A DNA stretch of 31,444 nt from Candidatus Heimdallarchaeota archaeon B3_Heim (GTDB lineage Archaea > Asgardarchaeota > Heimdallarchaeia > Hodarchaeales > Hodarchaeaceae). The position numbers were made by a program, and so were the translations under genes. The notes under the pieces are model-generated. The model was given only the letters and a program-made list of their open reading frames with translations, made no database searches and was not told the DNA's origin. This document shows positions 3,276 through 15,472 of the stretch, piece by piece (position 1 is the first letter of the stretch; every line of letters begins with the position of its first letter). The stretch covers positions 1 to 31,444 of the forward strand of contig NJBF01000042.1 in assembly GCA_003144275.1 (NCBI GenBank), written 5' to 3'.

Positions 3276-5321
3276 ATGGTCCTCGATTCAGTTAATCTTG
3301 TGAAACATAGAACTTATTGTTTTGTTATCCTCGTTTTAATTTCTCTGATTTTCGTAAATACAAACATTGAAAGTGATAAAACTTGGAATCGGAATTTGCG
3401 GTTTTCTCCCTATGAGAATGATATGGGATTATCTGTCTTCGAAGCCCACTCACGGTATAAAGTCCAAAGGACCAATTACATGGATCATGATCCAATAACT
3501 ATCATGGGGAACCTTGACTTTCTTGCACAAGCAACCTCGGAAGGGTGGCCTGGAGTAGGAAGTAAAGCAAATCCAATTATTATCAAGAATTTAGAAATAA
3601 TAAGTTCAGGAGGCTTTGAGACTGCAATATCGATTTGGGATACAAACTTGTTTTTTCAGCTTACTAATTGCATTTTAACTGAAGCATTTGAGATAATAAG
3701 TCTTCATAATGTTGAAAATGCAAATATTTCCCATAATGTGGTAAGAAATACTAATGGAGGGAATGTCCCTGAGCGTACTGGAATTGTATTATTTGGGGGA
3801 TCTTCTAATACTATTTTAAATAACACTGTGGATAATTGTGAGTGGGCAATAAGAGTTGAAGTTAATAGCAAGGATAATTTCATTTCTAATAATACGCTAT
3901 ATGACTGTAATTCAGGAATTTCATTGGATAGTTCCCATAATGTGACTATATCAAGAAATGTTGTTTATAATAATGGTCCTGATGGTGGGATAAATCTTAG
4001 GGGATCTACTAATTCCGTTATCAGTGATAATCAAATATATGATAATGAGGGGGATGGTTTAATTCTCTTTGGTTCTAGATCCAACCTAATACACAACAAT
4101 ACTGTTACAAATAATTCTGGCGCGATAGCGCTTGTTGAAACTTCCAATGATAATGAGGTTTCTGAAAATCTTCTGACTGGGAATGTAGGAGGACTTCAGG
4201 TTTGGGGGTCAGATAGAAACCTTCTCACCCATAATGAAATCGGTAATGGTTATCAAGATGGGCTCGTCCTATCATCGTCGACTTTCAATATAGTCTCCCA
4301 TAATTCTATTTACAATAATTTCGAAGGAATTGGCATTGTTGAAGGGTCGTCTAATAATCTAATTTACAATAATACTATATTTAATAATCCTGCTGTTGGG
4401 ATTTATTTGTCTCAGTCTAGTAATAAAAATAATATAACTGGAAATTATGTTTACAATAATAATAATGGGTTACGACTTCATACATCATGTAACAATTCAA
4501 TAGTTAATAATATTATCAACCACAACATCGGAAATGGGATTCTCCTTTTAAGCTCATCTGATAACAATATTATTTCTTACAATGAAATTTTAAACAACAC
4601 TCAGTATGGTATTCAATTAGAGGAAGCTAACTTCAACCTCATAAGCAATAATTACTTTATTGAGAATGGGATTGATAACTCTGAAGGTAGTTCGCAGGCT
4701 TCAATCATACTACCGTCTGAATACAATATATTCGCTTTTAATTTTTGGGATGATTGGCTAAGTTCTGATATTAATGGTGATGGATTCGCAGATAGTCCTT
4801 ATAAGATAGATGGTGGATTCCAAGATGATTTTCCACTAATTTCACAAGATATATCCTCTGTTGCAGATATTATTACCGATATGATGTTCATCTTTCCTTT
4901 GGGTGGAGAGACCGTACACGGCTTAGTGAAAATCCAATGGTTACCCTCGCTCGATGTATTTGGGCATACAGTCATGTATAGTCTTTATTATTCTGTTAAT
5001 AATGGAGAAAATTGGATATTAATCATAGCAAATATAGAAACAGTGTATTGGTTTTGGGATACTACTGCTGCTCCTGAAGATTCTTCCTGTATACTAAAAA
5101 TTTTTGCGATATGTTCAGAAGGGGTAGAGAAAGAATTGATAATAGGTGAACCGATTCTAATCGACAACCATGGCCCTCCTCCAAATTTATCAATACTAAT
5201 TGTCATAATCGCCATTGTTTTGGTTATCCCAGAATTATACATAGGAAGGAGATTTAGTAAATTTCTAACAAAATTACAAATGGAGCCAGCAAGAAATTCA
5301 GAAGGAGTCGAAAACCCATGA
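3276..5321 (+). CDS. Membrane-anchored surface protein with NosD/CASH-like parallel beta-helix repeats
   Basis: N-terminal hydrophobic segment, HDPI-x-I-x-GN..GWPG-x-GS lead-in, over a dozen ~22-aa Asn-rich repeats (N-x-I-x-x-N-x-I-x-x-N), NFWDDW..DINGDG motif, beta-rich domain, C-terminal TM and short tail. GGTGA 6 nt before the ATG. Confidence 0.85.
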   Translation: MVLDSVNLVKHRTYCFVILVLISLIFVNTNIESDKTWNRNLRFSPYENDMGLSVFEAHSRYKVQRTNYMDHDPITIMGNLDFLAQATSEGWPGVGSKANPIIIKNLEIISSGGFETAISIWDTNLFFQLTNCILTEAFEIISLHNVENANISHNVVRNTNGGNVPERTGIVLFGGSSNTILNNTVDNCEWAIRVEVNSKDNFISNNTLYDCNSGISLDSSHNVTISRNVVYNNGPDGGINLRGSTNSVISDNQIYDNEGDGLILFGSRSNLIHNNTVTNNSGAIALVETSNDNEVSENLLTGNVGGLQVWGSDRNLLTHNEIGNGYQDGLVLSSSTFNIVSHNSIYNNFEGIGIVEGSSNNLIYNNTIFNNPAVGIYLSQSSNKNNITGNYVYNNNNGLRLHTSCNNSIVNNIINHNIGNGILLLSSSDNNIISYNEILNNTQYGIQLEEANFNLISNNYFIENGIDNSEGSSQASIILPSEYNIFAFNFWDDWLSSDINGDGFADSPYKIDGGFQDDFPLISQDISSVADIITDMMFIFPLGGETVHGLVKIQWLPSLDVFGHTVMYSLYYSVNNGENWILIIANIETVYWFWDTTAAPEDSSCILKIFAICSEGVEKELIIGEPILIDNHGPPPNLSILIVIIAIVLVIPELYIGRRFSKFLTKLQMEPARNSEGVENP

Positions 5322-8300
5322 TTGAATCAGAAAGTAGTTTAATTGATAGCATCTCAATTAATGAATTCTCCCCACCAGATGTGAAGAATTGGGAAATCCA
5401 GATTCGTGTATTGGTTCGGATAGCCTCGATATCATTTTTTATTCTATTCATCCTAAAGATATTCGAAGCAAATTTACCAATATTTGCAGAGATATCAGTC
5501 GGAGTAGTTGTTTTTATATTAGGAATTTTCATAATAGGCTTAGTAGTAGGGTTCTTCCAATTACGATACATAAATGTCAGGCGGAATAAATTAACTAATT
5601 TTGGTGGATTAATCGGATTTGCAGGATTGTTCCTGACTGGAATTCCATGTAGTTGTGAATTAGTAGTAAAAGGTTTTTTTTCTTCGTCTCTTCTAGACAT
5701 TTTATTAGTTTCTGGCCTTTTTCTTACCTTTCTTGGTTTTTTTGCTGAAGTCACACAGCTAGACCAAATTTTTATTTATTTTATCCGAATTAGCTATCGG
5801 TTAATTATCCAATACACCTTATCAGGAATCGGAGCTTTCCTAGTAAATTTTGGGATGTTGTTTATCTATGTATGGCCCCGAGATTTAGTAGGTATTTGGG
5901 CAGTTTTAATAGGCCTGTTAATACTTTGGGGAACATGGTTTAATCAAATCAACCAATTAATATGGCAAAACAAAGTACACATTATGAGAACGAGCGAATT
6001 GTCCATCAGTGGAATTTTCCTCCTCTATATGTTATTTTCTCCCATTTTCTCCGTACTCGTATCCGATCCAGATATCAATATTGAAACTCTCTTTGTATCG
6101 GTTGTTTCAGGTATCATCTGTCTATCTATACTATACTTAGATCTTTACTTCTTTAGAGTACCAGACAATTATCAGAAAATGAGTGACAGATTTTTCCAAC
6201 GATTTTTATTCCTTTTCTGGATCAGTGCTGTCTCCTTGATATTAATTGGATCATTATATCCTCAATCTTTTTTACAAGCTTTAAGGGATTTAAGCAGTAT
6301 TTTTCGTATATCTTATCTAGGGGTTGGATTATTAGTTATCTATCGTGTTTGGTTTAAAGGAATCAATCAATTCCTAGTTAATACAGCTCGTACGTTTATA
6401 ACTGTGACTAAATACCTATGGAGTATCCGTATGGGTATCGTACGAGGTAGTATGACAGTTTCAGGCGTGGTACTAATAGTTCTTCCCCTGACCAGTCAAA
6501 TGCATTTTCTTGATCTTCCTATTCGGTATTTTCTAATCATTGTGGGAATAGGGATACTATACCTAGCTTGGCTCTCTCAAGTTAATGAAGCGATCATTCA
6601 CACTGTTCGTACAACTAAAAGGACACTAGTCGCCTTTGGACACTTTGTTTGGGATACGGGAGTGGCAATTAAACAAGCATTCATATCCTTCTTTCAGTAT
6701 CTGTGGTTTATTCGTATTAATCTTCTTAGGGGAACTATGACGCTATCTGGAGGCCTTCTTTCGGTATATGCGTTTGCATCTCCCTCCCTTGGCTCATTAC
6801 TCCAGCCTGTTCTCTTCATTCTTGGTTTAATAATCCTTTACACTGCATGGTTCGTTCAAGTCAATGATTTTCTCAAACGAGTTGCTTCTGCGATTTTTGC
6901 AGGATTGGTCTCATTTGGACACCGTATCTGGGATACAGGAGTTGCTATCAAAGAAGCCATTCTTTCATTTGCCCAATATCTGTGGTTAATTCGAATGAAA
7001 CTTCTTAGGGGAACCATGACGTTAACTGGAGGCTTTCTTACGGTATACGCATTTTTGTCTCCGTCTCTTGGCTCATTACTCCAGCCAGTTCTCTTCATTC
7101 TTGGTTTAATAATCCTTTACGCTGCGTGGTTCGTTCAGTTTAATGATTATCTTAGACGAACCGTTTCTGCTTTATATAAAGGATTAGTCTCACTTGGACA
7201 CCGTATCTGGGAAATAGGGGTTACTATCAAAGAAGCCATTGTTTCATTTGCCCAATATCTTTGGTTGATTCGCATAGAGGTCTTTCGCGCAGGAATGACT
7301 ATTGGTGGTCCGTTTGTGATGATGTTTTCCTTTTTTACCCCTTCTCTTGGACTGATTCTTCAAGGAGTCCTTTTTGTAAGTGGTTTAGCCATTTTCTACC
7401 TTGCTTGGTTTAGCCAGATCAATATGATTTTCATTCGAATGCTTCGTTCTTTCTATGACAGATTAAAAATGTTTAGTCACTTTGTTTGGGATTTAGGTAT
7501 CGCTCTGAAAGAAAGGGTTATTGCCCTGGCCCAATATATTTGGTTAATGCGAGTAGTAATTCTTCGAGTTATTCTAACTATTATTGGTCCAATCTTTATG
7601 CTATATGGACTGTTGACTCCATCCCTTGGTCTGTTTTTACAAGGATGTCTATTTATTGGAGGTTTGGCTTTATTTTACATCGCTTGGTTTAATCCAATCA
7701 ATTCATGGGTTATCAATTTGGCTCAATCACTCCGTGACGGCTTAATAAGGATTGGACATCTTATTAGGAAGACTGGGGTTTCGATTAAACATGCTCTCGT
7801 GAGTTTCTCAATATACCTTTGGAGTGTTCGAATGGGAGTGTCGAGGGGATTATTGACAATATTAGGAACTTTCTCATTGTCTTATCTCATTTTCACTCCC
7901 TCTCTTGAGTTCATCTACCAAATTTTGTTTTTATTCCTAGGAATTAGTCTTCTTTACCTGGCTTGGTTTGCTCAGGTAAATGCGTTTATCATTCAGACTG
8001 GTCGTATGTTCAAAAATGCACTTGTTTCGCTTGGAACCTTTATCTGGGATACTGGAGTTGCAATTAAACAAGCATTCATATCCTTCTTTCAGTATCTGTG
8101 GTTTATTCGTATCAATCTTCTTAGGGGGATTATGACACTATCTGGAGTTTTTCTTTCGATTTATGCGTTTGCATCTCCCTCCCTTGGTTCATTACTCCAG
8201 CCTGTTCTCTTCATTCTTGGTCTAATATTCCTTTACGCTGCGTGGTTCGTTCAAGTTAATGATTTCATAATTCAAACTGCTCGTGCTATAAAGGCCTCAT

Positions 8301-9049
8301 TTGTTTCAATTGGAATGTTTCTTTTGAGAACTGTACGCGCTATAAAACAGGGGATAATCGATTTCTCATACTATCTTTGGAGTTTAAGAATTAAGATTTT
8401 ACGCTTGGGGATGACAATATCGGGTGTAATTCTGGATTTTCTAGGGCTATCGATAATCTTAAATGATTTAGGATTGTCCGTATTATTAATTGTTTTGGGT
8501 ACCTCACTCCTTATTATTGCCTGGACGAAACAGATAATTAATATATTAGAATTAGCGGGCCAAGCATTAATTAATGCATTCAAAGCACTCTTAGATTTTG
8601 GTTCTCGCATTGTGGAACAAACACTAAAGTTAATAGGGACACTTCTTGATTCTATAATTTACATTGCTATTGTAACATTAGGAGTTACAGCTTTTGGATA
8701 TGGAGTGATATTGTTAGTATCTGGATTCCTAGGTGATCAAGGTGATTGGACAAAGACTGTAATCTCTCCGATACCTATATTTGGAGACATTTTATGGATC
8801 TTTGCTGCTATTCTACAAGGAAAAAGTGTCAACGATGTTGATAACCTTGTAGGAATTTTTGCAAACGATCCAACTTTCGTATTGTTGTTGTTAGGGCTAA
8901 TCTTTATTATCGTAGGCGCATTTATCCCTTTTATAACGTTCTTTTCAAGAGATTCCATCAAAATCTCGAATCTACAGAAAAGATTTGGTAGTTCGACAAC
9001 CGATAAAGAAGAAATGTTCTATGAAGGAAAAAAAGGTGGTAAAAAATGA
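5318..9049 (+). CDS. 1243-aa polytopic membrane protein with tandem 93-aa repeats, function unknown
   Basis: Long ORF, ATGA overlap with both neighbours, highly hydrophobic, seven full repeat registers at exact 279-bp spacing. Confidence 0.85.
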   Translation: MIESESSLIDSISINEFSPPDVKNWEIQIRVLVRIASISFFILFILKIFEANLPIFAEISVGVVVFILGIFIIGLVVGFFQLRYINVRRNKLTNFGGLIGFAGLFLTGIPCSCELVVKGFFSSSLLDILLVSGLFLTFLGFFAEVTQLDQIFIYFIRISYRLIIQYTLSGIGAFLVNFGMLFIYVWPRDLVGIWAVLIGLLILWGTWFNQINQLIWQNKVHIMRTSELSISGIFLLYMLFSPIFSVLVSDPDINIETLFVSVVSGIICLSILYLDLYFFRVPDNYQKMSDRFFQRFLFLFWISAVSLILIGSLYPQSFLQALRDLSSIFRISYLGVGLLVIYRVWFKGINQFLVNTARTFITVTKYLWSIRMGIVRGSMTVSGVVLIVLPLTSQMHFLDLPIRYFLIIVGIGILYLAWLSQVNEAIIHTVRTTKRTLVAFGHFVWDTGVAIKQAFISFFQYLWFIRINLLRGTMTLSGGLLSVYAFASPSLGSLLQPVLFILGLIILYTAWFVQVNDFLKRVASAIFAGLVSFGHRIWDTGVAIKEAILSFAQYLWLIRMKLLRGTMTLTGGFLTVYAFLSPSLGSLLQPVLFILGLIILYAAWFVQFNDYLRRTVSALYKGLVSLGHRIWEIGVTIKEAIVSFAQYLWLIRIEVFRAGMTIGGPFVMMFSFFTPSLGLILQGVLFVSGLAIFYLAWFSQINMIFIRMLRSFYDRLKMFSHFVWDLGIALKERVIALAQYIWLMRVVILRVILTIIGPIFMLYGLLTPSLGLFLQGCLFIGGLALFYIAWFNPINSWVINLAQSLRDGLIRIGHLIRKTGVSIKHALVSFSIYLWSVRMGVSRGLLTILGTFSLSYLIFTPSLEFIYQILFLFLGISLLYLAWFAQVNAFIIQTGRMFKNALVSLGTFIWDTGVAIKQAFISFFQYLWFIRINLLRGIMTLSGVFLSIYAFASPSLGSLLQPVLFILGLIFLYAAWFVQVNDFIIQTARAIKASFVSIGMFLLRTVRAIKQGIIDFSYYLWSLRIKILRLGMTISGVILDFLGLSIILNDLGLSVLLIVLGTSLLIIAWTKQIINILELAGQALINAFKALLDFGSRIVEQTLKLIGTLLDSIIYIAIVTLGVTAFGYGVILLVSGFLGDQGDWTKTVISPIPIFGDILWIFAAILQGKSVNDVDNLVGIFANDPTFVLLLLGLIFIIVGAFIPFITFFSRDSIKISNLQKRFGSSTTDKEEMFYEGKKGGKK
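6350..8540 (+). repeat. Intragenic tandem repeat, 279-bp/93-aa period, with an internal 54-bp/18-aa sub-repeat
   Basis: Equivalent codons at 6650, 6929, 7208, 7487, 7766, 8045, 8324; the [AT]W[FL]xQ[VI]N motif recurs; a shortened unit starts near 6350. Confidence 0.95.
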
Positions 9050-10659
9050 GTCAAAATGCAGAATTAAGAGATCTCTTGATCAGAGTTGGGTCGAAATTAG
9101 CAGAGACAGATAATGAGGTTCAAGATTGGCATGTATGGTTTCTTCGACATCTTGATTTTTACAACAATTCTAATTTATCAGAAAGTGCATTTGAAATTGT
9201 CTTAGAGCGACATAAGAATTTTCTAGAGAAAAAATTCGGTACCGATTTATCAAAAATCGAAGGAGAATTAGAGATTGATCAGCTTACTACAGGTGTAAAG
9301 TGTTCGTCTTGTGGTGGAGAAAATAGTGCACATACACAATATTGTATTCATTGTGGCAAACCTATTCAACAACAAGAGACATCTAAGATTTATATTAAAA
9401 AATCTGATGCTGAGGAGGAAAGTGAAGAGAAGGATTTTAACTTAACAGAGAAAATTATAGAAACAAGTGAATTGAAAGAAGAAATTGTAAATAAAGAGGA
9501 AAACAAGCTCGAACCAGTTATTAAAGTCGAGAAGAAATTAGATAAGAAACCCAAACCTTCCAATTCCTTCCAGAAAAAACTTATGGACGTTTCTCAAGTA
9601 AAGAAGCTAAAACCCTTTAAGCGAGAAGAGGAATCCAAGCGAAGATCGTTCAGAGATGTTCAGCTTGAATGGTCGGACATAATTTCATTTTCGAGAATTA
9701 CGATCATTGGTCTGGTCTTCTTTGTCCTTGTTCTAATAGCAATTGTTGCAAGAATGGCTACAGGAAGAACTGCCCTCGGATTAATTGCCCTAACCTTTTT
9801 TTTCCTTCTTTTTGGGTTTGTCCTTGATGTCTTGCGATGGAGAAATTATTCAGATTGGAGTGCCCTTGGAGCATTAATCGCCTATGCGGGAGTAGTATTG
9901 ATATTTGGCCCTTTGTTGATCTATGTATTTTTCGAGGAATTAGACTTGTCCACGATCATTCTCGCAGAAGGTCTAGGAGTGTTTTTTGTAATTATTGGGG
10001 TATCCTTGCGATGGAATGATTACGATACGAAACTTTTAGATTTAGGGACAATATTTGTTGCCTATCTTAGAAATTATCAGTATCGTGCTGCCTTTAGAGC
10101 GTTCTTGAGTTTAGCAAAGAATCTAATAGCAGGTCTTGTAAAAACCATTGGTAGTGGTCTCAGAAATTTCATACCACGTTTGATCGTATTTTCAAAAATA
10201 GTTGGAAGAGGCTTACAAACTTTTTTCAAAACAAGCCTAGGCTTATCATCTCTGTCTTTGAAAAGAAGTTTCACAGTTCTGTGGGAAAATGTTCATTGGG
10301 TAGGACTATTTGCTGCTTTTGGCTATCTTTTATTAGCAGGATTAACTTCCCAAGGTTTTTATCTCAATGTTGAACTAACTATTATTACTCTATTCTTTTT
10401 TGTTTTAGGAGTCCTATTTACCAATTCTGAAAGAGCAGTAAAGGCTGTAAAAAACACACGAAGGGTAGTCCTGAAAGGGATAATCAGTACATACTCCATG
10501 TTATCAGGAACCAAAATTAAAACTGAAGAAGCATTATTTTGTTCTCGCTGCATGAGAGGAGTACACGAAATTGAGTATGAAGAACTTAAACACGTTGAAC
10601 AAAAACAAATTCCCGAATGTCCATACTGTGGACACGAAAATTGGGTAACAGTTAACTAA
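9046..10659 (+). CDS. Membrane protein with N- and C-terminal zinc ribbons, function unknown
   Basis: CSSC-x10-CIHC near the N-terminus, K/E-rich linker, ~6-7 TM segments, long basic amphipathic stretch, C-terminal CSRC...CPYC. GGTGGT RBS and ATGA overlap. Confidence 0.8.
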   Translation: MSQNAELRDLLIRVGSKLAETDNEVQDWHVWFLRHLDFYNNSNLSESAFEIVLERHKNFLEKKFGTDLSKIEGELEIDQLTTGVKCSSCGGENSAHTQYCIHCGKPIQQQETSKIYIKKSDAEEESEEKDFNLTEKIIETSELKEEIVNKEENKLEPVIKVEKKLDKKPKPSNSFQKKLMDVSQVKKLKPFKREEESKRRSFRDVQLEWSDIISFSRITIIGLVFFVLVLIAIVARMATGRTALGLIALTFFFLLFGFVLDVLRWRNYSDWSALGALIAYAGVVLIFGPLLIYVFFEELDLSTIILAEGLGVFFVIIGVSLRWNDYDTKLLDLGTIFVAYLRNYQYRAAFRAFLSLAKNLIAGLVKTIGSGLRNFIPRLIVFSKIVGRGLQTFFKTSLGLSSLSLKRSFTVLWENVHWVGLFAAFGYLLLAGLTSQGFYLNVELTIITLFFFVLGVLFTNSERAVKAVKNTRRVVLKGIISTYSMLSGTKIKTEEALFCSRCMRGVHEIEYEELKHVEQKQIPECPYCGHENWVTVN

Positions 10660-12894: not shown

Positions 12895-13446
12895 TTAGGC
12901 CTTAAGAATACCTTGTTTCTTTAACACTTCTTTCGTAATCACCGAAAATGCCTCATGAATGTTTTGATTAGCATAAGCGGACGTCTCTAAATACTTCACA
13001 GGTTGAAAATCAGGGATGACTGTATCTTCTAAAACACCATAATCAATTTGGATCATATCATCGAGATCGGCTTTATTTCCAAGGAGAACAGTAGGAATCC
13101 TATTTTTTCCTAATCTTTCGTCAATTTGACTCTTCCAGTCATATAAATCATCTAAGGAGTCTGGACGTGTTAAGTCGAATACAACCAATGCACCATTTGC
13201 TTTTCGAAAAAATATATCTCTCAGTGTTTGGAATCGTTCTTGTCCAGCAACGTCAAATAAAATTAAATTAACCAAAAATCCATTAACTTCGATTTTCCGA
13301 TTTGAAGGTTCCATACCTATGGTAAGTAAGTAATTAAATTCAAATTTGTTTTCAACAAATCTGCGCACGATACTTGTTTTCCCTACAGCTCCAGTACCGC
13401 ATACTATGATTTTCATATGATATTTGGCTTTCTCCGTGTAGTCCAT
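12895..13446 (-). CDS. Rab-like small GTPase (Ras superfamily)
   Basis: G1 GTGAVGKTS, G2 LTIG, G3 DVAGQERF, G4 NKAD, G5 ETSA; RabF-like segments FFRKA and LVVFDLT; no C-terminal Cys. Confidence 0.95.
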   Translation of the reverse strand: MDYTEKAKYHMKIIVCGTGAVGKTSIVRRFVENKFEFNYLLTIGMEPSNRKIEVNGFLVNLILFDVAGQERFQTLRDIFFRKANGALVVFDLTRPDSLDDLYDWKSQIDERLGKNRIPTVLLGNKADLDDMIQIDYGVLEDTVIPDFQPVKYLETSAYANQNIHEAFSVITKEVLKKQGILKA

Positions 13447-13594: not shown

Positions 13595-15472
13595 ATGATG
13601 TCCATAAAAGAAAAGGTTTCACGAATTCCATGGAAAGAGTACCTCTCAAAACAAATGGTAAAAATTATTGGGCTCCTCCTTATCACTTTTTTGCTGATAA
13701 TTGTCATGATTATCTCTGTAGGCATTGAGGATCTATCAACTGTTACATATGGCAATACAGAGTATGTAGTCGCCATTGTTTTATCAACATTGTGTTTTTT
13801 CCTTGTATTAATCGGGTTTTCGAAAATTGTGCTATTCGATATGGCTGATGAGTTCGGTTTGAGAGATGAATCTGGAAAAATGATGTATAATTCGCGTTTT
13901 TGGCTATTTACACTGTTAGCTTTATCGTTTTGCTCCGCTATATATCTTCTCTTGGATGTTTTCTTACAAGAAACCTATTTACAACTTCTTCCAGTAATTT
14001 TTATGCGTGGAATTTTGGATTACTTTGAACTCGACATAGAGAATTTATCTGATGTTGATGGAAGGAAATTTTACGAAACAGCAAGGAATCTCTATTTTGG
14101 TGGATTTTTTCTTCTAATAATTGCATTCTCAATTATTGTTTTTCTTATAATTTTGACAACTTTTGCAAGACGTAGAGTTGTTAGAAAATTCAAAAAAGAG
14201 GAAGAAGTCGAAGAAAAAGAAAAAGAAGGGATTAAAACTATATATAAACTATTTGCTTGGATTCTAATTCCGTTTTTGGCATTTTTTGTAATAGCTTTAC
14301 AAAATACATCTATCGGACCTATCGTTACAATTGGATATCTGCTTGCAGCAATATGGTGGATATATCAAGTCTTAAAGGTGATTTTCCAAATTGTGTGGGG
14401 AGGTGTAAAGATTACAGCTTTTATCACAAGTGTCAATTTACTTGTGATTATTCCCCTCATTGCTACTTTATGGCTACTCCCTACATTTCTTTGGGGGATT
14501 TGGGATACGGTTCAGGCAGTCACTGATTCATCCTTTACTATGCCTGAGCTTACGAATCTGTTTGTAGATTCAATAATTACTAGACTTGTTGATTTTAATA
14601 ATTTAATTCAACTCGATTTCATAATAATAACAATTATTGCTACTTTGGTAGTAGGATTTGCTGAAGGATTTGCTATTATCGCGATCTTTTCTGCTTTATC
14701 TAGAGGTATAGAAGTAGCGCGAAGTGGACAAGTTCTTGCACGATCTCCACCAAAGGTTATGGTATTTTCTAAATATCTTGTTATGCTTGGTGTGTGGGTT
14801 TCACTTCTATGGGATAGCTTTGGAGCAATAATTGAAATGTTAAAAAATCAAATTAATTTAAACATACAATTAACTGTGCCTAACTTCTTTCATCTGCTTT
14901 ATAATCAGGTAGTTTTACCTATTTCGGATTATTTAGCAAAAAATTGGTCTACACTAGAATATCTTCCTTACTTGATTCTTCCAATCATTTTCATTTTCTC
15001 AGGAGCGTTTAAATTCCTATCTGTTGCATTAGTCACCCCGAAAGTCAAAGATAGGGGTGAAGTATTCTTCCTCCTCGTGTCTACTTCCTTTGTCTTGATC
15101 ATCACAAATATCTTAGGTGACATTTACGAATTAGCCATACCAGATGCTCCTTTACGTTCTCTCTCGGGTTTAACAACCATTCTTTCTTCTGCTGTTGGCA
15201 CCTTTGAAAATGTAGAATCTGTTGCTTTTTATGGTGGATTCCTATTTGGAATTGTTTTCATGCTTTGGAAGGCTATCAAACGAGAAAGTACCCCAACAAG
15301 TACTTCTGCTCCAACTGATGATAGTACTCTCCCATCAATTGATACTCCAACTAAGGAATCTGTTATTAAGGAAACAACTATTTTGGTAGATATTGAAGAT
15401 GCTGAACCCGATGAGACTCTCGATTTGGAATTAAGCAGTGGAAAAGAAGAAGCTGAGAATGTTGAACAATAG
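13595..15472 (+). CDS. Polytopic membrane protein (~12 TM) with acidic S/T/P-rich C-terminal tail, function unknown
   Basis: 625-aa ORF with many hydrophobic segments, charged loop RRRVVRKFKKEEEVEEKEKE, tail STPTSTSAPTDD...EEAENVEQ. Confidence 0.8.
   Translation: MMSIKEKVSRIPWKEYLSKQMVKIIGLLLITFLLIIVMIISVGIEDLSTVTYGNTEYVVAIVLSTLCFFLVLIGFSKIVLFDMADEFGLRDESGKMMYNSRFWLFTLLALSFCSAIYLLLDVFLQETYLQLLPVIFMRGILDYFELDIENLSDVDGRKFYETARNLYFGGFFLLIIAFSIIVFLIILTTFARRRVVRKFKKEEEVEEKEKEGIKTIYKLFAWILIPFLAFFVIALQNTSIGPIVTIGYLLAAIWWIYQVLKVIFQIVWGGVKITAFITSVNLLVIIPLIATLWLLPTFLWGIWDTVQAVTDSSFTMPELTNLFVDSIITRLVDFNNLIQLDFIIITIIATLVVGFAEGFAIIAIFSALSRGIEVARSGQVLARSPPKVMVFSKYLVMLGVWVSLLWDSFGAIIEMLKNQINLNIQLTVPNFFHLLYNQVVLPISDYLAKNWSTLEYLPYLILPIIFIFSGAFKFLSVALVTPKVKDRGEVFFLLVSTSFVLIITNILGDIYELAIPDAPLRSLSGLTTILSSAVGTFENVESVAFYGGFLFGIVFMLWKAIKRESTPTSTSAPTDDSTLPSIDTPTKESVIKETTILVDIEDAEPDETLDLELSSGKEEAENVEQ

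Follow-up and report, generated by a model that had tools for sequence, protein, structure and literature searches.

A lineage-specific Hodarchaeales membrane protein built from an exactly phased array of transmembrane hairpins and long amphipathic helices

What kind of protein is encoded by an exactly spaced repeat array in a Hodarchaeales genome, and what might it do to the membrane? The Hodarchaeales are usually regarded as the nearest archaeal lineage to eukaryotes, and a preliminary description of this locus, made from the DNA alone, had proposed a polymeric scaffold that curves, tubulates or measures membrane. The DNA analysed, hereafter the window, is a stretch of 31,444 nucleotides from Candidatus Heimdallarchaeota archaeon B3_Heim (contig NJBF01000042.1, assembly GCA_003144275.1). 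The array lies within a single gene, P0001, which is chromosomal and present once in the genome, and whose orthologues share 44-47% identity and have intact frames. Its features are as follows.

5318..9049, + strand: repeat gene P0001, 1243 aa, with about 28 predicted transmembrane (TM) helices as about 14 hairpins
5318..6307, + strand: N-terminal domain (aa 1-330), five TM hairpins with short cytoplasmic connectors, from hydrophobic segments and alignment
6308..6586, + strand: degenerate unit 0 (aa 331-423), unit HMM match at aa 351-423 (49 bits), 15-17% identity in register
6587..6865, + strand: unit 1 (aa 424-516), unit HMM 141 bits, 80-81% identical to unit 6
6866..7144, + strand: unit 2 (aa 517-609), from motif spacing, identity and unit HMM; first unit in the AlphaFold2 three-unit model
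7145..7423, + strand: unit 3 (aa 610-702), on the same three grounds; in the three-unit model
7424..7702, + strand: unit 4 (aa 703-795), on the same three grounds; in the three-unit model
7703..7981, + strand: unit 5 (aa 796-888), on the same three grounds
7982..8260, + strand: unit 6 (aa 889-981), recent copy of unit 1 (85% DNA identity)
8261..8539, + strand: unit 7 (aa 982-1074), the most divergent, hairpin tip without PSLG, unit HMM 111 bits
8540..9049, + strand: C-terminal domain (aa 1075-1243), most conserved part of the family, from alignment with invariant columns

The periodicity of P0001 was examined at the protein level. The motif AW[FLT] recurs at aa 417, 510, 603, 696, 789, 882, 975 and 1068, a step of exactly 93 aa (279 nt), and self-identity was 42% at an offset of 93 compared to about 10% at other offsets. 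The seven units at exact 279-bp spacing given in the preliminary description were thereby borne out, and the 18-mers, [ST]PSLG turn and AWFxQVN cap that it had quoted were all found in the units. Together the seven full in-frame units occupy aa 424-1074 (nt 6587-8539). They scored 111-141 bits with the unit HMM, and the degenerate unit scored 49. Between pairs of the seven, identity ranged from 29 to 81% for protein and from 44 to 85% for DNA; Tandem Repeats Finder picked up only the two most alike adjacent copies. The degenerate unit at nt 6308-6586 accounts for the earlier placing of the array start at 6350. In this unit the amphipathic connector is shortened, with a W-to-W distance of 23 aa, and in the N-terminal domain some connectors are capped by a degenerate WFxQIN-like motif with a W-to-W distance of 9 aa. 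The distances of 45, 23 and 9 aa noted previously were correct, corresponding to W418-W463, W345-W368 and W207-W216. Repeat number, proposed earlier as a property to compare among homologues, was found to vary from 2 to 9 units across relatives (unit HMM).

A family profile was built from 65 non-redundant units. The near-invariant columns were R48, T52, G55, G80, Y85, W88, Q91 and N93, and insertions were almost confined to the outer loop, columns 60-72. Columns 5-22 and 23-40 share the same family consensus at 9 of 18 positions; on this comparison, the two 18-mers in the unit are true sub-repeats. Gly was present at columns 18 and 25 at a frequency of 45% each.

To place P0001 among known proteins, it was compared with curated libraries and structure collections. 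No Pfam family was matched at E <= 0.01, and nothing credible came from NCBIfam, from PHROGs, from PDB sequences or from searches by fold. Among 1.84 billion representatives, the P0001 family comprised 23 clusters. Strong matches were present in 12 of the 21 genomes of one Hodarchaeales family, and no strong match was found outside that family among 400 Asgard genomes. Judged by these searches, P0001 is a lineage-specific integral membrane protein belonging to no known family.

The amphipathic part of the unit was then characterised. Both AlphaFold2 and hydrophobic-phase analysis gave one continuous helix of about 46 residues per unit. The earlier description of two 18-aa amphipathic helices was therefore retained for the sub-repeats and the strong amphipathicity, and replaced for the number of helices. 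The AlphaFold2 model of units 2-4 (pLDDT 87.5) contains, per unit, one 46-residue and two 22-residue helices with single-residue breaks between them; packing between units was not confidently predicted (pTM 0.35), and the full-length model was poor (pLDDT 59). In the VIA alignment, model residues 88-137 and 181-229 fitted straight single helices at 0.6-1.2 Å, and residues 44-88 fitted a transporter transmembrane hairpin at 0.8 Å.

Hydrophobic-moment and helical-wheel analyses, which the preliminary description had suggested, agreed with its amphipathic assignment. The moment spectrum over 53 residues showed a lone sharp peak of 0.39 at 100 degrees; away from the peak the moment was at most 0.20 at every other sampled angle, with 0.21 at 103 degrees. 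The phase of the hydrophobic face stayed within 306-358 degrees along the long helix, corresponding to one continuous face. On the wheel, aliphatic residues occupy the centre of this face, with an Ala stripe on one flank and W/Y/K on the other. W22, W40, Y11 and K29 lie at 60-140 degrees, i.e. at the polar/apolar boundary, and acidic residues are restricted to the centre of the polar face: by sector analysis of the 65 units, no acidic residues were present below 120 degrees (fraction 0), and at 150-180 degrees their fraction was 0.24. By its moment peak and continuous face, together with the boundary pattern of charged and aromatic residues, the long helix resembles a class-A helix, although with the Ala stripe on the second flank the boundary pattern is seen on one side only. 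The amphipathic part had an approximate insertion energy of +10 to +15 kcal/mol, compared with about +0.5 in TM2 and +1 to +4 in TM1. These values support the view, already implicit in the preliminary description, that the 36-aa amphipathic segment does not span the membrane, and it is not a soluble coiled coil either.

Among relatives, nine distinct W88-to-R48 connector lengths were found (35, 39, 46, 53, 57, 64, 68, 75 and 76), with 11- and 18-residue steps among them. All but one of these lengths lie no more than 60 degrees from a common helical phase (eight of nine; R = 0.80, P ~5e-5). Hairpin lengths showed no such phase clustering (R = 0.04), and the outer loop varies freely in length. 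Measured in this way, the length of the long helix shifts among relatives in whole-turn steps only, which upholds the earlier proposal that the helical face is preserved when the connector changes length. Two features may qualify this picture of a straight surface helix. The Gly residues at columns 18 and 25 could form a hinge, in which case the two 18-mers might fold back on each other, and the polar face is narrow and weakly polar, so that the long helix could instead be buried in protein-protein contacts.

The orientation of the units was deduced from charge. The tips (columns 63-72) of the seven units contain no K/R and only two D/E in total, and the amphipathic parts contain 39 K/R versus 15 D/E, a trend that holds family-wide. 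This distribution points to the long helices being on the cytoplasmic side. Since their ends pass via one-residue kinks into membrane-spanning helices, the geometry suggests that each long helix would lie flat in the cytoplasmic-leaflet interface. Long acidic insertions occur at the hairpin tip in homologues and would have to extend to the opposite side of the bilayer. Taken with the 22-residue arms, the acidic outer loops suggest a hairpin of full span rather than the shallow wedge of a reticulon, and in this respect the short reticulon/REEP-like hairpin of the preliminary description was not upheld. Within the hairpin helices the conserved polar residues are limited to one Thr, besides glycines (family profile).

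The C-terminal domain consists of an amphipathic helix, a TM helix with an invariant D and YG, an outside segment, the last TM helix and a basic tail. The outside segment (about 50 aa) is conserved and carries the motifs IPI..G, LQG and NLxG, and the invariant residues of the whole domain in the alignment are D, YG, P, QG and G. The shorter proteins matching this domain were fragments only.

The genes on either side of P0001 were also analysed, and three further features were defined.

3276..5321, + strand: P0006, upstream gene (681 aa), Pfam Beta_helix 2.7e-45, NosD 5.7e-42; NCBIfam para_beta_helix
5187..5246, + strand: P0006 membrane anchor (aa ~638-657), from the alignment of five orthologous anchors
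9046..10659, + strand: P0007, downstream gene (537 aa), start overlapping the P0001 stop

P0006 has the layout of a type-I surface protein: it combines a signal-anchor with a NosD-like ectodomain, a right-handed beta-helix, and its C-terminal membrane anchor is conserved. At the cytoplasmic end of the anchor a Pro-Glu pair is invariant and is followed by a basic tail. In the five aligned proteins the ectodomain ranges from almost none up to a total protein length of 975 aa, and it is exchanged under a constant anchor: beta-helix, beta-helix plus discoidin, C-type lectin or almost none. These anchor-bearing surface proteins sit 5' of the repeat gene in relatives too. P0007 starts with a zinc ribbon and a charged linker, continues with TM hairpins between which run about 85 aa of basic, amphipathic sequence, and ends in a CxxC..CxxC ribbon. 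The P0007 orthologue lies immediately 3' of the repeat gene in 5/5 further genomes. The P0006 stop overlaps the P0001 start (ATGA), and start/stop overlaps of 1, 4 or 8 nt were seen in the operon across five genomes. On this arrangement P0001 is translationally coupled to the upstream surface protein and the downstream zinc-ribbon membrane protein, and the gene order suggests that it may form a complex with both. Other conserved neighbours among close relatives encode an aldehyde ferredoxin oxidoreductase, YjeF_N and a Ras-like GTPase.

On the most likely reading, P0001 would be a membrane-integral structural platform, in which in-plane helices stapled by hairpins would hold and organise the surface protein and locally stiffen or bend the membrane; we consider this reading equally likely to be right or wrong. 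The chain would comprise about 14 two-helix TM hairpins, and in the central array successive hairpins would be linked by a single amphipathic helix, straight and about 46 residues (~7 nm) long. The seven 93-aa units would together give a belt or raft whose in-plane helices are stapled to the bilayer by the hairpins, and would load the inner leaflet only. One partner made with it would be the type-I surface protein, with its conserved anchor and exchangeable glycan-binding-type ectodomain; the other would be the zinc-ribbon membrane protein, on the same hairpin-plus-amphipathic-helix plan. The result would be a platform of large footprint and leaflet asymmetry with a structural role. What the analysis itself shows is the repeats and their secondary structure, the amphipathicity and the topology read from charge, the phase-quantised length of the helix, the distribution of the family and the conservation of the operon, whereas the in-plane position, complex formation and structural role are what we infer.

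The platform was weighed against a dedicated curvature generator, in which hairpin wedges and one-leaflet amphipathic helices would act as in reticulon, REEP and CURT1, the polymer tubulating or invaginating the membrane and the number of units setting the size of the curved domain. A conserved operon with a lectin/beta-helix surface protein points equally to an anchoring or organising platform and to a pure membrane shaper. TM hairpins combined with a cytoplasmic-leaflet amphipathic helix are the two ingredients of the reticulon/REEP proteins (DP1, Yop1; PMC7835363, PMC10162974), and hairpin tips almost without charge, as in P0001, are a trait noted for REEPs (PMC7835363). The amphipathic mass of P0001 is likewise all on one leaflet, and the 2 to 9 units of its relatives would suit such a role. 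However, a REEP is a small protein of two hairpins and a single short C-terminal helix that works as an oligomer, whereas P0001 is one chain of 1243 aa in which roughly 14 hairpins take turns with helices of 46 residues. The full-length arms and acidic tips described above favour a bilayer-spanning hairpin over a half-depth wedge, and no sequence or fold relationship was found: reticulon (PF02453) and TB2/DP1 (PF03134) were not among the Pfam matches of 24 family members, and Foldseek, VIA-wide and Atlas searches returned no reticulon/REEP chain, every match being a generic helix or hairpin (Z <= 7.4). Similar in size and content is CURT1, which curves thylakoid membranes (PMC12661324, PMC9950537), a module of about 100 aa with an amphipathic helix and two TM helices, to which one 93-aa unit approximately corresponds. 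CURT1 subunits are, however, separate, small and oligomerising, whereas the P0001 modules are covalently concatenated in a fixed helical phase; no homology to CURT1 was found, and the Asgard archaea are an unrelated host lineage. Furthermore, neither of the conserved partners, a surface protein of lectin type and a zinc-ribbon protein, is remodelling machinery, and helices inserted in the cytoplasmic leaflet would tend to bend the membrane inward rather than outward. We know of no description of inward membrane bending in these cells. As a candidate activity of the array, generation of curvature is plausible, but as the dedicated function of P0001 it is unlikely.

Three further explanations were considered less probable still. 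The array could be the force-collecting arm of a mechanosensor, channel or transporter, like a Piezo blade, with the C-terminal domain and its re-entrant-looking outside segment as active site or pore. A long linear array of repeated TM units, each with an in-plane helix at the cytoplasmic face, would be a design shared with Piezo blades; conservation is highest in the C-terminal domain, which holds the invariant residues, and the surface protein could pass on force or ligand binding. Piezo units, though, have four TM helices and are packed directly on one another, whereas those of P0001 have two and are set apart by helices of 7 nm, without a pore module and with no sign of oligomerisation. 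No channel or transporter was matched above background in Pfam or fold searches, and Piezo was not among the fold-search results, for which the full-length model was too poor to serve as query. The single Thr and the glycines conserved in the hairpin helices are typical of helix packing, and this explanation is quite improbable. An apolipoprotein-like belt that binds lipid or hydrophobic cargo, its helices wrapping lipid particles or a specialised patch of lipid while the hairpins tether it, is more doubtful again. It would fit the straight hydrophobic stripe, the basic and aromatic interface with acids in the middle of the polar face and the 11- and 18-residue periodicity, all of which resemble class-A helices. 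Exchangeable apolipoproteins, however, are soluble and have no membrane-spanning segments, whereas every helix here is flanked by genuine spanning hairpins between conserved, polytopic end domains, and the neighbourhood has no storage-lipid context. Apolipoprotein class-A helices are mentioned alongside REEPs, which can themselves form lipoprotein particles (PMC7835363). The phage or mobile-element tape-measure protein to which the repeats had been likened in the preliminary description was not supported and is effectively refuted by profiles, gene context and TM count. Tape-measure proteins do combine aromatic 11/18-residue periodicity with hydrophobic segments, and 1 of the 24 family members matched Tape_meas_lam_C (E = 0.0065), but this lone Pfam match is at noise level. 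PHROGs gave no match at E <= 0.01 and one of unknown function at E = 0.086; the single-copy chromosomal gene has cellular neighbours in synteny conserved across genomes, and about 28 TM helices are incompatible with a tail-tube ruler.

Returning to the structural platform, the Ala stripe suggests the hypothesis that the long helices pack in a sheet. Under this one possible packing P0001 would resemble the caveolin 8S disc (PMC12107156, PMC12330381), an in-plane amphipathic layer that sits in the cytoplasmic leaflet and displaces that leaflet alone. Caveolin forms an 11-mer spiral disc without membrane-spanning helices, whereas the in-plane helices of P0001 are stapled by spanning hairpins in one chain. 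Taken further, the array could be a single-chain polymer of antiparallel helices packed via the Ala stripe into a cytoplasmic-leaflet-displacing raft of about 7 x 8 nm, an effect that caveolin achieves in an unrelated way; with the lectin-type receptor outside and the zinc-ribbon adaptor inside, it would constitute a receptor-linked, inward-bending patch in Hodarchaeales. We regard this extension as a long shot.

Overall, the interpretation in the preliminary description was partly supported. P0001 bears on how wall-less Hodarchaeales cells organise and shape their membrane, and its family is missing from all curated libraries. To our knowledge, a design of spanning hairpins strung on rigid in-plane helices that change length by whole turns only has not been described previously. 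The units are small, modular and exactly phased, and lend themselves to direct testing. If P0001 is an anchor only, it would still explain how these cells hold exchangeable glycan-binding surface proteins. If it is a leaflet-asymmetric scaffold, prokaryotes would have in it a convergent counterpart to devices of the reticulon, CURT1 or caveolin type; and should the receptor-linked patch prove true, the archaea most closely related to eukaryotes would have independently evolved an endocytosis-like or membrane-domain device of their own.

The repeat gene product, P0001, carried an A-W-[FLT] motif at aa 417 + 93k (k = 0–7), and its self-identity was 42% at an offset of 93 aa compared with ~10% at other offsets. 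Cut in register, the array had the following features:

5318–9049, + strand: P0001 open reading frame, encoding a very hydrophobic protein of 1243 aa
6587–8539 (aa 424–1074), + strand: seven units, each of exactly 93 aa (279 nt)
aa 331–423, upstream of the seven units: a degenerate unit, scoring 49 bits with the unit HMM vs 111–141 bits for the seven units

Pairwise identity among the seven units was 29–81% at the protein level and 44–85% at the DNA level, and Tandem Repeats Finder detected just the two most similar adjacent copies. Every motif quoted in the preliminary description was present, and the W-to-W distances that it gave (45, 23 and 9 aa) were correct. The non-adjacent units 1 (6587–6865) and 6 (7982–8260) shared 80–81% protein and 85% DNA identity, far above the array average. 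The shared positions lie mainly in the 3' two-thirds of each unit, suggesting that one unit was recently copied in frame or that gene conversion took place. In the orthologue P0002, units 4 and 5 were 92% identical, similarly a recent in-frame duplication. Positional orthology of units between close species was partial, with for example 65% identity between P0001 unit 1 and the first unit of P0002.

P0001 units 2–4 were modelled with AlphaFold2 from an alignment of 33 three-unit segments from the family. The model (pLDDT 87.5, pTM 0.35) contained three helices per unit with single-residue breaks between them, positioned by unit column (1–93) as follows:

column 89 of the previous unit to column 41: long helix, 46 residues
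columns 43–64: first hairpin helix (TM1), 22 residues
columns 66–87: second hairpin helix (TM2), 22 residues

By structural alignment, model residues 88–137 and 181–229 fitted straight single helices (0.6–1.2 Å), and residues 44–88 fitted a transporter transmembrane hairpin (0.8 Å). The amphipathic segment had been described as two separate 18-residue helices. In the family consensus, 9 of the 18 residues in columns 5–22 recur in columns 23–40, which makes the two 18-mers real sub-repeats; however, because the model helices and the structural superpositions agree, they most likely form one continuous helix. The hydrophobic phase led to the same reading. Over 53 residues (column 89 to column 48) of a family profile built from 65 non-redundant units of 26 proteins, the hydrophobic-moment spectrum peaked sharply and only once, at exactly 100 degrees per residue (0.39, vs 0.21 at 103 degrees and ≤0.20 at all other sampled angles), and the direction of the hydrophobic face stayed within 306–358 degrees throughout. 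The proposed strong amphipathicity was thus borne out, with a single peak and a continuous face. On the helical wheel, an aliphatic centre was flanked on one side by an Ala stripe (columns 9, 16, 27 and 34) and on the other by W22, W40, Y11 and K29, with acidic residues confined to the centre of the polar face. Face and wheel support a single continuous long helix independently of the model, and the pattern is, as judged from sequence, that of an interfacial, lipid-seeking helix, one flank of which would suit tight helix–helix packing.

On an approximate biological hydrophobicity scale, the amphipathic part had an estimated insertion energy of +10 to +15 kcal/mol, compared with ~+0.5 kcal/mol for TM2 and +1 to +4 kcal/mol for TM1. 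On these approximate values, a membrane span formed by the 36-aa amphipathic segment was ruled out. Insertion of TM1 is marginal, and it presumably inserts as a hairpin together with TM2. The amphipathic parts of the seven units contained 39 K/R vs 15 D/E, while the hairpin tips contained no K/R; across the family, basic residues were nearly absent from columns 60–72, where acidic residues reached 42%. By the positive-inside rule, this charge distribution places the long helices on the cytoplasmic side and the tips outward. Insertions among relatives were almost confined to the hairpin tip, and some tips were long and acidic, which argues that the family hairpin is a true bilayer-spanning pair rather than a half-depth wedge. 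These tips, together with the 22-residue arms of the model, speak against the short, reticulon-like wedge originally envisaged. P0001 itself has a minimal, uncharged tip ([ST]PSLG). Residues that are near-invariant in the unit (R48, T52 and G55 in TM1; G80, Y85, W88, Q91 and N93 where TM2 ends) gather at the junction of hairpin and long helix, the hairpin's cytoplasmic end.

In family proteins and in orthologues taken from genomes, the connector (W88 to the following R48) took nine distinct lengths (35, 39, 46, 53, 57, 64, 68, 75 and 76), with steps of 4, 7, 11 and 18 residues. Eight of these lengths shared one helical phase to within 60 degrees (resultant R = 0.80). Among random sets of distinct lengths this value has P ~5e-5, which is indicative only, as the lengths share ancestry. 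In contrast, hairpin lengths (R48 to W88) covered the range 29–56 continuously and favoured no phase (R = 0.04). The contrast between a phase-locked connector and a freely varying hairpin loop is clear despite the shared ancestry, and the rotational register between the long helix and both joined hairpins is, on this comparison of lengths, kept by selection. The preserved helical face suggested earlier from the W-to-W distances is thereby confirmed and extended. In P0002 the units are 75 aa long and lack exactly one 18-mer.

A straight helix of 46 residues is ~7 nm long. Since both its ends run directly into helices that span the same membrane, the long helix should lie along the membrane surface, an in-plane position that we infer from geometry. 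Inter-unit geometry was of low confidence in the three-unit model (pTM 0.35), and the units may be arranged either as an extended belt or as a zigzag raft packed through the Ala stripe. A full-length AlphaFold2 model (pLDDT 59, pTM 0.26) was discarded as a source of shape. For the whole of P0001, hydrophobic segments suggest ~28 transmembrane helices, or ~14 hairpins, distributed as follows:

N-terminal domain: five hairpins with short connectors
degenerate unit: one hairpin
array: seven hairpins
C-terminal domain: one hairpin

Conservation across the family was highest in the C-terminal domain, where invariant D, YG, P, QG and G surround ~50 residues on the outside; a search for shorter proteins matching this domain returned two contig-end fragments only.

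Searches of P0001 against Pfam, NCBIfam and PHROGs gave nothing usable, a Pfam scan of all 24 family members yielded stray noise-level matches and no consistent family, and all matches to PDB sequences had E ≥ 0.3. The feature-based search of the ESM Atlas gave no usable match. With the three-unit model, Foldseek against the PDB reached a best E of 1.9 (TM < 0.25), the Atlas fold search gave TM ≤ 0.26, and the VIA-wide search (best Z = 7.4) matched single helices or hairpins only, within the background for helical models. None of these searches matched the protein to a known family. Searched exhaustively with HMMER, 1.84 billion cluster representatives yielded 23 proteins; the named members of the family were hypothetical proteins from MAGs of Hodarchaeales, Kariarchaeaceae or 'Promethearchaeota', with one labelled Odinarchaeota. 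Among 400 Asgard species genomes, strong matches were found in 12 of the 21 genomes (many incomplete) of the window's own family and in no other family. Weak, repeat-only matches occurred in four genomes of a second family of the same class and in one more distant genome; the remaining genomes of the 400 gave no match. The gene is present in one copy in its genome. A 'TGA inside match' in four orthologues was rejected as an internal stop, being the natural stop codon.

The number of repeats among homologues ranged from 2 to 9, with unit lengths of 75 to ~120 aa. A second repeat type of ~115–125 aa, absent from P0001, was interleaved with the 93-aa type or replaced it in four relatives (P0004, P0005, P0013 and P0026), with motifs YYRE..T and IW[HY].P.RH..FRG..TTLS, so at least two kinds of module make up the central array of the family. 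Neither the family nor a tandem, phase-locked design of long in-plane helix and hairpin was described in the literature searched. Hairpin plus amphipathic helix is a physical principle known from reticulon, REEP and CURT1 proteins; P0001 differs from CURT1 in being tandem and phase-locked.

The repeat gene lies between two partners, and the three genes (3276–5321, 5318–9049 and 9046–10659, all + strand) overlap consecutively by 4 nt. The same arrangement was found in four other genomes, with overlaps of 1, 4 or 8 nt. The downstream gene, encoding a zinc-ribbon membrane protein (P0007, 537 aa in the window), directly adjoins the repeat gene in all five further genomes, and a more distant pair of the two genes was adjacent by locus tag. 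In the upstream gene product the C-terminal membrane anchor (invariant Pro-Glu, basic tail) is always the same, whereas the ectodomain varies:

window, 3276–5321, + strand: 681 aa, NosD-like beta-helix ectodomain
genome G066: 975 aa, beta-helix and F5/8-type-C (discoidin) ectodomain
genome G071: 438 aa, C-type lectin ectodomain
three other genomes: 58–91 aa, almost no ectodomain

The ectodomains look like shuffled glycan-binding cassettes. Given the conserved gene arrangement and the variable ectodomains, three proteins make up the conserved module: an anchor whose glycan-binding-type head is exchangeable, the repeat protein, and a zinc-ribbon membrane protein of the cytoplasmic side. A region of ~130 aa between beta-helix and anchor in the window protein matched no Pfam model; the equivalent region in G066 had tissue-factor/FN3-like and discoidin matches. 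P0007 itself contains hairpins and ~85 residues of basic amphipathic sequence, and the unit HMM found no similarity in it. In its distant orthologues only aa ~165–537 were conserved, comprising the transmembrane hairpins, the ~85-aa stretch and a C-terminal CxxC..CxxC ribbon; the N-terminal zinc-ribbon part was absent or encoded elsewhere.

A Ras/Rab-like small GTPase gene (12895–13446, − strand; Pfam Ras, 4.1e-41), found 2.2 kb downstream, is syntenic in close relatives but does not belong to the module. A functional link of the GTPase and a neighbouring 365-aa gene to the module was rejected: of four further genomes of the family with a GTPase orthologue, three carried it (69–73% identical) away from the module, so its proximity reflects local synteny. 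The gene at 13595–15472 (+ strand), kept beside the GTPase in four genomes, encodes a 625-aa protein of no family, with a weak PIG-Y-like match (E = 4e-4) below the cut-off. At the other end of the window lie an aldehyde:ferredoxin oxidoreductase gene (151–1938, − strand) and small ORFs (2409–2747, − strand), whose place beside the oxidoreductase gene is occupied in relatives by a ThiS/MoaD-fold gene.

P0001 shares the hairpin and amphipathic-helix ingredients of REEPs and reticulons (PMC7835363), as would befit a pure curvature generator, but its hairpins differ in being full length, and it showed neither a reticulon/REEP profile match nor the reticulon/REEP architecture; we regard this reading as unlikely. 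A channel or mechanosensor, a lipid belt and a tape measure are each less likely than either curvature generation or a structural platform: the channel or mechanosensor is improbable, the lipid belt still more so, and a tape measure would be extremely surprising. The platform reading, for which we judge the balance to be about level, is that P0001 is a membrane-integral structure of in-plane cytoplasmic helices stapled by spanning hairpins and assembled with two co-translated partners. As the helices of such a platform would load the inner leaflet alone, some stiffening or bending of the membrane is likely, and the platform would hold and organise a lectin-type surface protein.
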